The notes under the pieces are model-generated. The model was not told the origin of the DNA. It did no database searches and worked only from the letters and a program-made list of their open reading frames with translations. From Verrucomicrobiota bacterium (GTDB lineage: Bacteria; Verrucomicrobiota; Verrucomicrobiia; Limisphaerales; AAA164-E04), in contig CP170459.1 of the NCBI GenBank assembly GCA_047947115.1, forward strand, positions 2,400,001 to 2,464,000: a DNA stretch of 64,000 nucleotides, in the 5' to 3' direction. The translations under genes were made by a program, and so were the position numbers. Below, one piece after another: positions 1-5,905 of this stretch. Position 1 is the stretch's first letter; every line of letters begins with the position of its first letter.

Positions 1-1985
1 TCACTGAAATCAGCCAACTTGACCACACGGAAACAGCGGCACGATTGAATGCCGAGCGTTTGAAGATTGCCACCGAAACGGCGAAGGTCGGCATCTGGGA
101 GTGGTATCTTGACTCCGGAAAGGTTCATTGGAATGCGGAAATGTTTTCCATCTACGGAATTTCTCAAACGCCTGACAGTTTTGTTCGGTATCAGGACTGG
201 AGTCAAAGCGTGCTTCCCGAAGATTTGCCGAAGCAGGAAGAAATCTTAAAGAACATCAGGGAAAATGGGGAAAGTGTGGAACGCGTGTTCCGCATCAAGC
301 GCAGGAGCGACGGATCCATCCGTACGGTCATGGCGGTCGAAACCATCAAAAAGGACGCCAATGGCAACAACATTTCCATGGTCGGCATCAATCGTGACAT
401 CACCGAACAACTTTCAGGTTTCAAGAGAGATGCCTTATTGACAGCCATAGTTGAAAACTCGATTGATGGAATCCTGACCAAAGATCTGAACGGGAGGATT
501 ACAAGCTGGAATGCCGGAGCCACCAAGATTCTTCAGTATTCCAAGGAAGAAATTATTGGAAAGAATGTGAGGGAGCTGATTCCCGACTCCAGACGTGGTG
601 AGGAAGATAGCATCGTCAACATCATTCAATCCGGTAAATCCCTGACGAATTATCACACGCAGCGGCTTTGCAAGAACGGCGCGGTCACCGAAGTGTCCAT
701 CAGCGTCTTTCCCATCCACACACGTGACGGGAAAATTGAATCCATTGCTTCCATCATTCGTGATACCACCGATACACGTCGCATCGAGCGTAAACTTCAG
801 GAAGCTGACAAGTTTGAAAGTCTGGGTGTTCTCGCCGGAGGCATTGCCCATGAGTTCAATAATTTGCTGACTGGGATTCTGGCGAATGTGGGGATGGCAC
901 AAAGAGAAATTCAGGCCTGTCCTCAGGCAGCGGAATCTCTTGGTGAAATCCGCGCATCTGCGCGTCAGGCTGCGGATCTGTGTTTGCAGATGCTGACCTA
1001 TGCCGGCAAAACGGATTATGAATTCGTAGCGGTGGAGTTGTGTGATCTTGCCCGGGATGTGGTGAAATTTCTCGGACGATCCATCCATCGCAACATACAG
1101 ATTGAATTGACCAACGATGACGGAAAGCACGTCGTGATGGGGGATGCTGTCAAGATTAGGCAAATACTTGTCGACCTCATGTTGAATGCAGCCGAATCCA
1201 TCGGTTCAAGTGGCGGAAAAATCACCATCAAACTGAAGGAAGAAACACTGAAGGAAGATGAGATCGGAGAGCTGCGACTCGGGTATCGACTGAAACCCGG
1301 CATATACGCTTCTGTTTCCATTAGTGATAATGGGTGCGGGATGACACCCAAGCAGTTGGAGCATATTTTTGATCCGTTTTTCTCAACGAAATTTACCGGC
1401 AGAGGATTGGGGTTGCCAACAGTCCGGGGCATTTTGACAGCGCATCACGGGGCTCTAAAGGTGCAATCCGAGAGTGGTGTCGGGACCACTTTTACTGTGT
1501 TGTTACCTCATCAAGCGACCTCCGAAAAGAAAGTGTCGATGATTCCGACCCCAAAGCCCCATCCCGGCAAAGCTCAGAGCAAAGAGGCGATCCATCCATC
1601 AAGTCTCCCGGGTAAAGGCAAAGTATTCGTGATCGATGATCTTGTCATGATTCGAAGGGCTTTGAAGCGCCTGCTTGGCAAGCTGGGTTTTGATGAGGTT
1701 TTGGTTGCTGAAGACGGGGAAACCGGCTTTGAGCTCTACAAGGAACACGCCAAAGATCTGCGCATCGTATTTCTTGACCTGGTGATGCCGGGGTGGGATG
1801 GCGCGGCGACATTTGGAGCATTGCATGCTTATGATCCGGACATTCCCGTTGTCGTGATGAGTGGTTACGTCGAAGAACAGGTTGAAGAGTCTTTTAAGGG
1901 GGGGGAGTTGCCTGCCGGATTTTTGCAGAAACCTTTCGATGAGGATTTGGTTAAATCATGCCTCGAATTGGCAAGGCAACCATAG
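1..1985 (+). CDS. Hybrid PAS-domain sensor histidine kinase/response regulator (CckA-like), 5'-truncated by the window edge
   Basis: Frame is open from base 3. Two PAS/PAC domains (GIWEW..., DGILTKDLNGRITSWN), H-box GIAHEFNNLLTGI, N/G/F boxes (DNGCGM, IFDPFFSTKFTGRGLGL), C-terminal receiver (VIDD, LDLVMP, FLQKP). Confidence 0.93.
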   Translation, partial: TEISQLDHTETAARLNAERLKIATETAKVGIWEWYLDSGKVHWNAEMFSIYGISQTPDSFVRYQDWSQSVLPEDLPKQEEILKNIRENGESVERVFRIKRRSDGSIRTVMAVETIKKDANGNNISMVGINRDITEQLSGFKRDALLTAIVENSIDGILTKDLNGRITSWNAGATKILQYSKEEIIGKNVRELIPDSRRGEEDSIVNIIQSGKSLTNYHTQRLCKNGAVTEVSISVFPIHTRDGKIESIASIIRDTTDTRRIERKLQEADKFESLGVLAGGIAHEFNNLLTGILANVGMAQREIQACPQAAESLGEIRASARQAADLCLQMLTYAGKTDYEFVAVELCDLARDVVKFLGRSIHRNIQIELTNDDGKHVVMGDAVKIRQILVDLMLNAAESIGSSGGKITIKLKEETLKEDEIGELRLGYRLKPGIYASVSISDNGCGMTPKQLEHIFDPFFSTKFTGRGLGLPTVRGILTAHHGALKVQSESGVGTTFTVLLPHQATSEKKVSMIPTPKPHPGKAQSKEAIHPSSLPGKGKVFVIDDLVMIRRALKRLLGKLGFDEVLVAEDGETGFELYKEHAKDLRIVFLDLVMPGWDGAATFGALHAYDPDIPVVVMSGYVEEQVEESFKGGELPAGFLQKPFDEDLVKSCLELARQP

Positions 1986-2091
1986 CTCGAATGGGGCGAC
2001 TTTCCTTGAATGTTCGTTCATTCAAATTGTATATTCCCTGAAATTCTCCCTCGACTCTTATCTCCCGATCGGTTTTATAATGCGCTCAACC

Positions 2092-3558
2092 ATGAGTACG
2101 CCATTTTTCCGAAAGAACGATTCTTCGCCATTTCGGCAGTCGCCCGTTACCCGGCGTCGTATGTTGCAATCTGTTGCCTGCGGTTTTGGTGGGCTGGCAT
2201 TTTCTGGCATGCGTGCCGATTTGCGCGCTGGCACCCATCAAATTGAAAATCCTCTGGTCCCATTGACCACTCACGTCCCGGCCCGGGCCAAGCGTGTTAT
2301 CTTTCTTTTCATGCAGGGTGGGCCCAGCCATGTGGACACCTTTGATTACAAGCCAAAGCTCTTTGCCAGTCACCAGCAGGAAGTGGATATCCTTGGATAC
2401 CGGTTCAATAATTTCAGGAAAGCCACCAGGCAGGTGATGATGAAGCCGCTCTGGGACTTTCAAAAACATGGTCAAACCGGCAAGTCGGTTTCGTCCCTTT
2501 TTCCCGAAGTGGCGAAACATGTGGATGATCTGTGCTTTATTCACAGCATGCACACCGAAGGCGTGGCGCACGGACCTTCCACGCTTTTTCTGCACACCGG
2601 GTCGGTGAACACCGTGCGTCCCTCGGTTGGAAGCTGGATCAGTTACGGGCTTGGTACGGAAAACGCCGACATGCCCTCATTTGTCACCATCTGCCCGACA
2701 GCGCGCATGGGCGGACCTCAGAATTACGGTAATGCCTTTCTGCCTGCCATTCATCAAGGAACTCCCATAGGTAAGGCCGAACAACCGGTCTCCGAAGTTG
2801 GAATCAAGGATATTGTCAACCCCCGGTTGAATGCCGAAGAGCAATTGAAGCGATTCCAACTGCTTCAGGCTCTGAACCGGACACAACTCGCACAGAGTCC
2901 TTCCAACGATAATATGGAAGCAAATCTGAATGCATTTGAACTGGCGTTTCGCATGCAGATGACGGCTCCCGGTTTGATGGATATTTCCAACGAACCCGAG
3001 TCCGTGTTGAAACGTTACGGCATCGGCGATAAAGCGACCGACAACTACGGACGTCAATGCCTGATGGCTAGAAAAATGGCGGAAGCAGGCGTGCGATACA
3101 TTCAGGTAAATTACAGTGATAACGATGGAGGCAACCCGCGTTGGGATCAACATTCCAACATGCCTCGCCATGAGCAACACGCCAGAGCCGTCGATAAACC
3201 CATCTCCGGATTGTTGTCCGACCTGAAATCGCGCGGTTTGCTGGAAGATACGTTGGTATGGTGGGGCGGGGAATTCGGAAGAACTCCTTTCTCACAGAAC
3301 AACAATGGCCGTGACCATAATCCGTTTGGTTTCACCGTCTGGCTTGCCGGTGGAGGGGTGAAGCCGGGTTTCAGCTATGGATCCAGCGATGAATACGGTT
3401 ACCAGGCGGTGGAAAACAAAGTTCACATGCATGACTTGCACGCCACTGTCCTTTACTTGTTGGGGCTGGAACATGAGAAACTGACATTTCGTCATGCTGG
3501 CCGCGATTATCGGTTGACCGACTTGTATGGAAACGTGATCAGGGACATCATTGCCTGA
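2092..3558 (+). CDS. DUF1501 domain protein (sulfatase-fold, PVC-typical) with twin-arginine-like N-terminus
   Basis: TRRRMLQ...GFGGLA, AKRVIFLFMQGGPSHVDTFDYKP, GEFGRTP, GRDHNP, RLTDLYG. Start placed at ATG 2092 (2080 is an alternative). Confidence 0.9.
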   Translation: MSTPFFRKNDSSPFRQSPVTRRRMLQSVACGFGGLAFSGMRADLRAGTHQIENPLVPLTTHVPARAKRVIFLFMQGGPSHVDTFDYKPKLFASHQQEVDILGYRFNNFRKATRQVMMKPLWDFQKHGQTGKSVSSLFPEVAKHVDDLCFIHSMHTEGVAHGPSTLFLHTGSVNTVRPSVGSWISYGLGTENADMPSFVTICPTARMGGPQNYGNAFLPAIHQGTPIGKAEQPVSEVGIKDIVNPRLNAEEQLKRFQLLQALNRTQLAQSPSNDNMEANLNAFELAFRMQMTAPGLMDISNEPESVLKRYGIGDKATDNYGRQCLMARKMAEAGVRYIQVNYSDNDGGNPRWDQHSNMPRHEQHARAVDKPISGLLSDLKSRGLLEDTLVWWGGEFGRTPFSQNNNGRDHNPFGFTVWLAGGGVKPGFSYGSSDEYGYQAVENKVHMHDLHATVLYLLGLEHEKLTFRHAGRDYRLTDLYGNVIRDIIA

Positions 3559-3772: not shown

Positions 3773-4663
3773 ATGCTGATGAATCGCATGTTATGTTTGC
3801 TTTTGGGTGCCTCTGCCTTGTTGATTGCGCCTGACATCAGGAGCGGTGAGCCGTCCCTGACCGGGGTTTCTCAGCCGCAGCGTGACCGGCATGTAGAAGC
3901 CAGGCTGTTGAGCGAGCAAACCCATTTGGCTCCTGGGGAATCCTGGTGGGTGGCATTGGAATTGAAACACGATCCGACCTGGCACACCTATTGGATCAAC
4001 GGGGGAGACGCAGGGGTGGCCACGACCATCAATTGGCAACTGCCCGAAGGCGTCACAGCCGGCCCCATCCAATGGGAGGTGCCACAAATCGTCAAGATGC
4101 TCCAATTGGACGTTTACGGATACGAGGGCATCTGCATGCTTCTCGTCCAATTGAAGGCACATCCCGAAGCCCGTCTTCCCGAGACATTTGAAATCCATGC
4201 AGATGTCAACTGGATGATGTGCTCCCGAACATGCATGCTGGGCAAGGGCGTTCAACTGAACTTGACGATGGGGCGAGCAGACGATTCCCAAAGCTTACCC
4301 CAGTCCCCGTGGGCGGATTTGGTGCGGCAGGCCGTCCTGCGCCTGCCTGCCACCGCGCCTAAAGACATGTTCAGCGCCGGTTACGACGCCGCTCAAAATG
4401 TGTTTCAGTTGATATGGAAGGCTTTTCCTGGCGAACACGAAATCCTGGAAGTCTACTACTTTGACACTACCGAGCAAATTACATCCAATCAACCACAGGT
4501 CTGGACCCAAGTGGAAGAGGGATGGCAGTTGGCGCTTCCGCGTGCATCTTATGCCCCGCAAACTTTCGATCGATTGAAGGGGGTTTTACGTTGGAAAGAG
4601 GTGGGGGCAGATACATCCTACCGCTGGCTCGCCATCGATACTCCCGTCATTTCAAGGGAATAG
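3773..4663 (+). CDS. Secreted protein-disulfide reductase DsbD N-terminal-domain protein (no membrane or thioredoxin domain)
   Basis: Signal peptide; WHTYWINGGDAG, WQLPEG, YGYEG; CSRTC cysteine pair. Confidence 0.8.
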   Translation: MLMNRMLCLLLGASALLIAPDIRSGEPSLTGVSQPQRDRHVEARLLSEQTHLAPGESWWVALELKHDPTWHTYWINGGDAGVATTINWQLPEGVTAGPIQWEVPQIVKMLQLDVYGYEGICMLLVQLKAHPEARLPETFEIHADVNWMMCSRTCMLGKGVQLNLTMGRADDSQSLPQSPWADLVRQAVLRLPATAPKDMFSAGYDAAQNVFQLIWKAFPGEHEILEVYYFDTTEQITSNQPQVWTQVEEGWQLALPRASYAPQTFDRLKGVLRWKEVGADTSYRWLAIDTPVISRE

Positions 4664-4683: not shown

Positions 4684-4923
4684 TTAAGACCTCAAAGCCC
4701 GAACTTGTTGCAGGATATCGTTCGGATCAGGAAATTGACCTGTCGACTTTTTACTATAGATCAGTTGATCGTTTACGGTCACTTCAAACAAACCTCCACT
4801 CTCAGGGATTAATGTGAGCGAGGTGATGTCTTGTTTGAGTTTCATGAGTTTCTCCGCCAGACCGACGGCTTTGGGCTCATAATTTCAAACGCTGCAATAC
4901 TGGATGGTAACTTTCAATCCCAT
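4684..4923 (-). CDS. SelT/SelW/SelH (Rdx) family selenoprotein, 79 aa, CxxU motif with UGA read as Sec at codon 13
   Basis: Manual minus-strand translation: MGLKVTIQYCSV(TGA 4885-4887)NYEPKAVGLAEKLMKLKQDITSLTLIPESGGLFEVTVNDQLIYSKKSTGQFPDPNDILQQVRALRS*. Rdx hallmarks IxYCxxU, GGxFEV and SKKxxGxFP all lie in one frame across the TGA. Confidence 0.88.
4842..4882 (-). promoter_or_regulatory. Putative bacterial SECIS element directly 3' of the Sec UGA
   Basis: mRNA reads UGA-AA-UUAUGAG-CCCAAA-GCCG-UCGGUC-UGGC-GGAGAAA-CUCAUGA. Lower stem UUAUGAG/CUCAUGA, upper stem GCCG/UGGC, loop contains GGU; the GGUCUG run resembles the E. coli fdhF SECIS apex. Confidence 0.6.
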
Positions 4924-4930
4924 GCGGAAA

Positions 4931-4959
4931 ACTCTAATGATCCTGCCTCAATACGTCAA
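4931..4959 (-). promoter_or_regulatory. Putative sigma70 promoter of the selenoprotein gene (likely leaderless mRNA)
   Basis: TTGACG-N17-TAGAGT on the minus strand, with the -10 box 7 nt before the ATG and no SD. Confidence 0.55.
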
Positions 4960-5182: not shown

Positions 5183-5905
5183 TTACCACCAGAAGGTGGG
5201 TTGACCGGTCGTTCGAACCACCATTTTATCAAAAGTCCGCCAACTGGCGTGTGAGTCCATGAATAACACATTGCCTCCGGATGGCAATTGACCTTGCAGG
5301 TGAGGTGAACGATGTGCTTCTTCCCAACCACCTCGTACTTCCGTGAAGTCGTTGCGGGTACGGTCGGTCATGTTTTCTCCGACCGAAAGGGTGGCGTCCG
5401 CTGCGATGGCCGCTTCAGTGGGGCCAATGGCATATTCGGATCCGTCCGGATTCTTGACCACTTTTTGTTGGATTTTCACGAACGTATTGGTCGCGATCAC
5501 ACGAGGTGAATCCTTGGTGGCGAAGGCAAATCCCAGCACTTTGAAGTTCGGGGTGAATGCCCACAACTCGTCCGAGTTCTGTTTGGCGAACGAAGGACAA
5601 TACAGGATGTTGCGTTCGAAACCGTATCCCAGCATGTTGGTAACAACCTGGGCCGGCATGTCCCATGGCCAGTTGCCACGTATGTTGTTGTACGACATCG
5701 GTGGCAGATTGTCATCCCAATCACCGGCATACATGTGACTTGCGATGCCCACTTGACGCAAGCTGCTCATGCAGGCCGTGCGCTTGGCCTTTTCCTTTGC
5801 TTTGGAAAGAGCCGGAAGCAACATGCCCGCCAGAATGGCGATGATGGCAATCACAACCAGCAACTCGATCAAGGTGAACGCCTTTTGTTTATTGAATGTT
5901 TTCAT
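5183..5905 (-). CDS. Prepilin-type N-terminal cleavage/methylation domain protein with H-X9-DG-like C-terminus (DUF1559-like PVC pseudopilin)
   Basis: [33 protein letters not shown]...CMSSLRQ; C-terminal H...[10 protein letters not shown]. Confidence 0.9.

Follow-up and report, generated by a model that had tools for sequence, protein, structure and literature searches.

Does the in-frame TGA at codon 13 of a short minus-strand reading frame specify selenocysteine (Sec), and, if so, what would its product do? The frame lies in the window, by which we mean the whole 64,000-nucleotide stretch of Verrucomicrobiota DNA analyzed here, and had been described in a first-pass annotation as an ATG-started frame reading YCSV-TGA-NYEPKA. 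It is exactly as described: the frame runs from window position 4923 to 4684, TGA is codon 13, 66 sense codons follow, and the segments GGLFEV and SKKSTGQFP and the terminal TAA (4686-4684, minus strand) are all present. The main features of the locus are:

4684..4923, minus strand: selW-like gene of the Rdx family, with 79 codons and a TAA stop, predicted Sec at codon 13 (from the frame, family profiles and structural model)
4885..4896, minus strand: redox motif C10-S-V-U13 (TGC AGC GTT TGA)
4885..4887, minus strand: in-frame UGA, predicted Sec codon (TGA in orthologous loci)
3773..4663, plus strand: convergent neighbor of 296 aa carrying a DsbD N-terminal domain (PF11412), its end 20 nt away from the selW stop

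As genomic context, a neighbor with the DsbD N-terminal domain is also found at 12 of 29 loci in related genomes and at 10 of 47 loci in named genomes (both sets are described below). The other flanking genes are ordinary: a DUF1501 protein at 1861-3558 (plus strand) and a prepilin-type N-methylation/DUF1559 protein at 5183-5905 (minus strand).

An Rdx-Family Reading Frame Interrupted by TGA

Sequencing error, which had been raised as a possible source of the TGA, is ruled out by contigs of public runs. None of the eight public runs that cover the codon lists a different letter there; in five, a contig spans the TGA by at least 31 nt on both sides (three DNA runs, none flagged as a possible source, and two RNA runs), and in the other three the TGA is covered nearer a contig end. 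Covering runs not flagged as a possible source are labeled as estuary, seawater, freshwater, aquatic, urban and outdoor metagenomes.

The claim that the protein belongs to the Rdx/SelW family was borne out by two profiles above their cut-offs. With C substituted for U, the translation matches PF10262 (Rdx) at 80.1 bits (cut-off 22.6, E = 1.4e-22) over profile positions 1-73 of 74, a match that spans the TGA and places the frame far beyond chance, and TIGR02174 at 69.7 bits (cut-off 34.2). Among NCBIfam profiles, NF041051 (SelTWH_Campy) scores highest, at 84.7 bits over its full length, below its cut-off of 88. The gene is the sole Rdx gene in the genome. C10 and position 13 are invariant in 44/44 aligned proteins; in 43 of the 44, the C at position 13 stands for a TGA codon. 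A GxFEI/V motif is a hallmark of the Rdx family; here it appears as GGLFEV, with G44 and F46 invariant in the same 44 proteins.

Eight solved structures of the SelW type were matched by sequence, and in each of the three alignments listed (2fa8, 3dex and 2p0g) Cys stands opposite the UGA. An AlphaFold2 model built from 44 sequences (pLDDT 88.3) has the order strand-helix-strand-strand-strand-helix, with C10-S-V-U13 directly after the first strand (residues 3-10), as expected for a CxxU/CxxC motif of this family. Foldseek superposes the model on 2fa8, 2obk, 3dex, 2p0g, 2oka and 2ojl with TMq 0.88-0.95 and rmsd 1.0-1.4 Å (2fa8: E = 5.4e-9, TMq 0.90), and on mouse SelW with TMq 0.72. The predicted model thus has a minimal thioredoxin-like fold. 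With the first strand beginning at residue 3, there is no space for a signal peptide, and the protein is predicted to be cytoplasmic.

The Genome Encodes a Complete Sec Machinery

The first-pass annotation had proposed that this organism makes selenoproteins and that selA, selB, selC and selD should be present. Searches of the genome, a single contig of 6.08 Mb that is 95.8% complete, found all four above cut-off: selA at 449273 (plus strand, 462 bits), adjoining selB at 450688 (plus strand, 302 bits); selD at 3993893 (minus strand, 398 bits), which has its own in-frame TGA (HCAG-TGA-AAK) and its own hairpin; and tRNA-Sec (selC), with a UCA anticodon, at 2340339 (plus strand, 61.9 bits). Among 50 tRNAs, the UCA anticodon is present only in the long tRNA-Sec, and tRNA-Trp has CCA. 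TGA is also the commonest stop in the genome, ending 928 of 1899 long ORFs. Because TGA is used so widely as a stop and tRNA-Trp has the CCA anticodon, we conclude that UGA is not globally reassigned.

The TGA Is Conserved and Co-occurs with selA

Orthologues were collected from two overlapping sets, which we do not sum. Among 61 related genomes, an orthologue is present in 28, at 29 loci, with TGA at codon 13 in 28 of the 29 and TGC in one. A search of named genomes, patterned on the fixed peptide NYEPKAVG rather than on codons, found 49 loci; two (L126 and L127) were set aside for lack of alignment at codon 13, and all remaining 47 have TGA. Planctomycetota, Acidobacteriota and further phyla are represented among these loci; the closest named relatives belong to Verrucomicrobiota, several of them titled Pedosphaera or Limisphaerales. 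The expectation that homologues would carry Cys or Sec at codon 13 therefore held for the orthologous loci and failed for one public 78-aa protein (P0003), which has Trp at this position.

The single TGC locus (L043, G052:C15:60352-60576) is a natural Sec-to-Cys orthologue, fast-diverged and on a very long branch, in a genome that retains selA. The protein tree (44 rows, 80 columns) is unrooted, and 18 of its 41 inner branches are open. Distant Sec-form Rdx genes (L044-L048; 31-36% identity) occur in five genomes from a second genus of the family; their hairpin has an AGUUU loop and their neighbor is another one, apparently a membrane transporter, which suggests a separate origin.

Of the 27 genomes carrying the TGA form, 25 gave a selA match (23 above cut-off and two as fragments at contig edges); completeness is 52% and 85% in the two that gave none. 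An even sample of 301 genomes across the phylum, each at least 90% complete, contained Rdx genes in 40 genomes (four with TGA and 36 stop-free) and selA in 18. All four TGA forms occur in selA-positive genomes, whereas 35 of the 36 stop-free forms occur in selA-negative ones and one in a selA-positive genome. Among 39 genomes of the same order outside the family, selA is present in 12/12 with any Rdx gene versus 3/27 without. Many selA-positive genomes nevertheless lack the SelW-like gene: in the phylum sample the TGA form is missing from 14 of the 18, and 13 are without any Rdx gene, and in the same family it is absent from six selA-positive genomes. The gene is therefore dispensable. An Rfam search for tRNA-Sec matched 50 of the 61 relatives without distinguishing tRNA-Sec from other long tRNAs, and was excluded from the co-occurrence analysis.

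A Near-Invariant Hairpin Follows the UGA

A hairpin just downstream of the UGA had also been predicted, and one of the bacterial SECIS type was found there:

4854..4868, minus strand: apical SECIS-type hairpin CCGUC-GGUCU-GGCGG, with its loop starting 21 nt after the UGA and G first
4842..4882, minus strand: lower stem that may form between 4882-4876 and 4848-4842, by prediction for the host genome; poorly conserved

Section 5 of PMC13188914 gives the bacterial SECIS a loop of 3-9 nt, an upper stem of 4-16 bp, G in the first two loop positions, a distance of 16-37 nt from the UGA and a minimum free energy of -7.5 kcal/mol or lower. By hand check, the hairpin lies within each of these limits, with a 5-nt loop (GGUCU), a 5-bp stem, a distance of 21 nt and -13.2 kcal/mol over 53 nt. 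This folding energy alone is unremarkable (z = -1.63; 11 of 200 shuffles equally good), and three longer windows gave weaker z scores. What singles the hairpin out is covariation and codon freezing. In a set of 27 distinct orthologue sequences, 99.3% of 135 cells are paired over the five positions, with compensatory two-sided changes at two of the five. None of 500 shuffles reached the pairing or the covariation value, a control inflated by the relatedness of the sequences, and slid registers were 15-55% paired. The loop-side codons GTC, GGT and CTG are invariant in 47/47 named loci; at Pro U+4 and at control Gly and Pro codons, all four synonyms are in use in the same loci. The sole Cys orthologue keeps one of the five pairs. 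An extended lower stem, tried as a conserved feature, was rejected, with 55.6% of cells paired across the 27 sequences. Covariation together with frozen codons is the pattern that would be expected from recognition by SelB.

Taken together, selABCD, the conserved TGA and the SECIS-type hairpin support the proposal that this organism makes selenoproteins. On this comparative evidence we consider it very likely, close to certain, that the SelW-like gene is intact and that its UGA is decoded as Sec.

Predicted Expression from a Leaderless mRNA

Upstream of the gene we noted one candidate signal:

4931..4959, minus strand: promoter-like site of the sigma-70 type, TTGACG-N17-TAGAGT, with 7 nt between its end and the ATG

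The spacing of 6-7 nt between promoter and ATG is common to 7/7 same-genus orthologues; at the four loci of the sister genus TTGAC is kept, CAT replaces TA, and the pattern failed. A promoter-like signal at such spacing precedes 14 of 1817 long ORFs, compared with 11 of 7268 displaced controls, and there is no Shine-Dalgarno-like motif ahead of the selW-like ATG. From the promoter position and the absent Shine-Dalgarno motif, the mRNA is probably leaderless. Metatranscriptome contigs from five RNA runs cover the gene; three end at 4902-4910, near the start, and two extend past it, one end carrying adapter, and strand, start and level are not readable from these contigs, which give at most a weak hint. 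No direct report of a leaderless selenoprotein mRNA was found in the largely open-access literature searched.

A General Oxidoreductase or an Accessory of the Sec Pathway

We favor, with a probability of about 0.7, the reading that the SelW-like gene, with UGA as Sec, encodes a cytoplasmic CxxU thiol/selenol oxidoreductase, as its sequence and modeled fold predict; given Sec, a general role in thiol redox is likely on the same grounds. By the established bacterial pathway, as reviewed in PMC13188914, SelD would form selenophosphate, SelA would convert Ser-tRNA(Sec) to Sec-tRNA(Sec), and SelB, on the GGUCU-loop hairpin, would bring the latter to codon 13; under Sec shortage, translation would stop after 12 residues. 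Going by family and fold, the Sec13 selenolate would attack an oxidized protein thiol or disulfide, a selenenyl-sulfide would form as Cys10 resolves, and the cell's thioredoxin-type system would re-reduce the protein. Recombinant SelT, a relative of SelW, showed oxidoreductase activity (PMC4840926). Gene neighborhoods point to no substrate or partner for the protein, the adjacent gene being convergent and Prx linkage absent at the 47 named loci.

Gene order raises a second possibility, in which Sec is decoded just the same and the protein is dedicated to selenium metabolism, carrying or reducing selenium for SelD or sensing Sec supply through its early UGA. At 15 of the 47 named loci (13 Verrucomicrobiota and 2 Acidobacteriota), tRNA-Sec lies downstream of the selW-like gene on the same strand, in 14 cases within about 170 nt, and 10 of the 15 also have selD, selA or selB within 3 kb. 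In each of the three remaining genomes with a TGA form in the phylum sample, selA, selB and selD come after selW-selC; one of these loci apparently duplicates a named locus of the 47. The co-occurrence of Rdx genes with selA in the same order points the same way, and PMC13188914 describes the in vivo selenium donor to SelD as unresolved. The subgroup with the signature U-N-Y-E-P-K-A-V-G-L would then be a Sec-pathway accessory, perhaps ancestrally first in selW-selC-selD-selA-selB, that feeds reduced selenium to SelD or couples sel expression to Sec supply. Against this, 64 kb separates the host gene from selC, and selAB and selD are also distant; at 32 of the 47 named loci, some of them truncated by contig ends, no sel gene is close by; and the many selA-positive genomes without the gene, in the phylum sample and in the family, do without such an accessory. 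Co-transfer alone would lead one to expect a Sec-dependent gene beside its machinery, and the kin compared are not independent. We therefore regard a dedicated role in selenium metabolism as unlikely. If it were true, the most abundant marine selenoprotein family would gain a function and SelD a candidate selenium donor. A link between SelW and the sel cluster, or a SelW in Verrucomicrobia, is not directly reported in the largely open-access literature we searched. The gene-order link is the one lead worth testing.

Far less probable is that UGA acts as a true stop, leaving either a pseudogene or a gene whose only product is the 53-aa protein from Met27. The public record could be read this way. 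Of 15 protein-database homologues found, 13 are 48-61 aa long (one is named "hypothetical protein"), and six of eight inspected begin downstream of the UGA position; the set, being mostly truncated, is unsuited to counting Cys against Sec. Short forms are the expected output of gene callers that stop at TGA and are therefore poor support for a true stop. The 12 upstream codons are conserved in frame with Cys10 invariant, the Pfam match extends across the UGA, and codon and hairpin alike are common to several phyla, conservation that nearly excludes a true stop. The statement that gene callers miss this locus needs amending accordingly: the locus is publicly present as the 53-aa product from Met27 (P0002, on 38 contigs), and it is the CxxU motif that is absent from that product.

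Reading of UGA as Trp, Gly or Cys by an alternative code or leaky suppression has the Trp of P0003 in its favor, possibly (we guess) a gene-calling artefact such as a call under a TGA=Trp code, and is scarcely credible given TGA as the commonest stop, a UCA anticodon on tRNA-Sec only, tRNA-Trp with CCA, and homologues with Cys.

Other Candidate Selenoproteins in the Genome

A rough genome-wide screen for in-frame UGA, which may miss some candidates, brought the total to 11 (contig G000:C1): SelW, two FG-GAP genes and eight others including SelD. The sites other than SelW are:

3506932 (minus strand) and 5559634 (plus strand), loci L129 and L135: TGA in paralogous 1248- and 1287-aa FG-GAP / ASPIC-UnbV / redoxin / TPR proteins
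3463806 (plus), 3457302 (minus), 3793083 (minus), 25240 (plus), 5420377 (minus), 1762526 (minus), 4540987 (plus) and 3993863 (minus): TGA in the eight further candidates

The eight comprise formate dehydrogenase alpha (TIGR01591, above cut-off), a Trx7/PDZ protein (NF041199, above cut-off), two AhpC/TSA UxxC proteins, one WAxxUxxC redoxin, a W-U-G-T-C protein without family match, a deiodinase-like/EF-hand protein and SelD. The FG-GAP paralogues read DTGDL-TGA, with a hairpin 17 nt downstream; the site is TGA in 29 of 30 fetched loci, in 18 of 61 genomes, and GAA in the other, two of the loci being pieces of one gene. The FG-GAP pair was found neither in the 119-family table of PMC13188914, as far as it was accessible, nor in our literature search, and is more novel than the SelW-like gene.

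Two further kinds of frame were seen. An 810-codon frame (L133) with TGA at codon 691 (position 4114440, minus strand) looks coding on both sides of it, with no Pfam or NCBIfam match and no convincing hairpin; it represents either a nonsense mutation or an unknown selenoprotein. Ten near-identical frames of about 470 codons, near 1008211, 5772871, 1376612, 3804569, 1035021, 399636, 312990, 1206120, 1689666 and 3891528 (G000:C1), are probably an insertion sequence.

For annotation, the consequence is that the public entry for the SelW-like gene is a 53-aa hypothetical fragment without an active site, and the same holds across the lineage. Peng 2016 (PMC5029168) lists Verrucomicrobia bacterium SCGC AAA164-E04 as positive in the SelD and Sec columns with four selenoproteins, their families unnamed in the table; its record contains an orthologue (L083), 77% identical and with the same neighbor. 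At least ten split or truncated candidates here, against four counted in 2016 for this close relative, mean that selenium use in the lineage has been under-counted.

Comparison with Known Systems

Sec decoding in the SelW-like gene is not new: the family is catalogued, and Sec use has already been reported for a close Verrucomicrobiota relative. SELENOW-like proteins (PF10262, CxxU) are among the 119 prokaryotic selenoprotein families of PMC13188914 (Table 1), which calls their bacterial function largely uncharacterized. SelW-like is the commonest family of selenoproteins in ocean metagenomes (PMC2398784, PMC9402790), and Sec forms outnumber Cys forms by 427 to 56 in the GOS data (PMC2398784, Table 2). 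SelW or Rdx is not mentioned in the main text of PMC5322559, nor SelW in the accessible part of the Actinomarina preprint. The BSepDB supplement (PMC13326102), in a perhaps incomplete form, gave no match for three lineage names; BSepDB itself may well list the lineage's SelW.

The solved Cys homologues (Atu0228, 2fa8; SAV_2001, 3dex; 2p0g, 2obk, 2oka and 2ojl) share 27-37% identity and a similar fold with our protein; they carry CxxC (in the three alignments listed) where it has CxxU, and are structural-genomics targets with titles that name no function. Mammalian SelW (2npb; E = 2.3e-5, TMq 0.72) and MIEN1/C17orf37 (2ljk; E = 6e-8, TMq 0.64) resemble it in fold family and motif position, but mammalian SelW has a eukaryotic SECIS in its 3' UTR, and its eukaryote-specific partners are inapplicable here.

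Decoding would resemble that of the E. coli fdhF type by SelB, with a hairpin soon after the UGA, a G-G-U apex and a distance inside the 16-37 nt consensus; the GGUCUG of the hairpin presumably resembles fdhF. Unlike the fdhF-type SECIS, the conserved part here is a stem of only 5-6 bp, with no conserved lower helix. Mechanistic novelty is thus small, but a very small, near-invariant hairpin for which nature supplies a Sec-to-Cys control makes a clean SECIS test case, and the recurrent position upstream of selC offers a testable idea on the function of bacterial SelW-like proteins.

Nothing here differs in kind from the bacterial SELENOW-like family, with which the gene shares a single Rdx domain, an N-terminal CxxU, a GxFE motif, a C-terminal FP, an in-gene SECIS and an aquatic habitat. 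Some marine GOS reads pair selW with Prx, an arrangement absent from all 47 named loci of this subgroup (0/47); what sets the subgroup apart within the family is its U-N-Y-E-P-K-A-V-G-L signature, its near-invariant hairpin and its frequent position upstream of selC.
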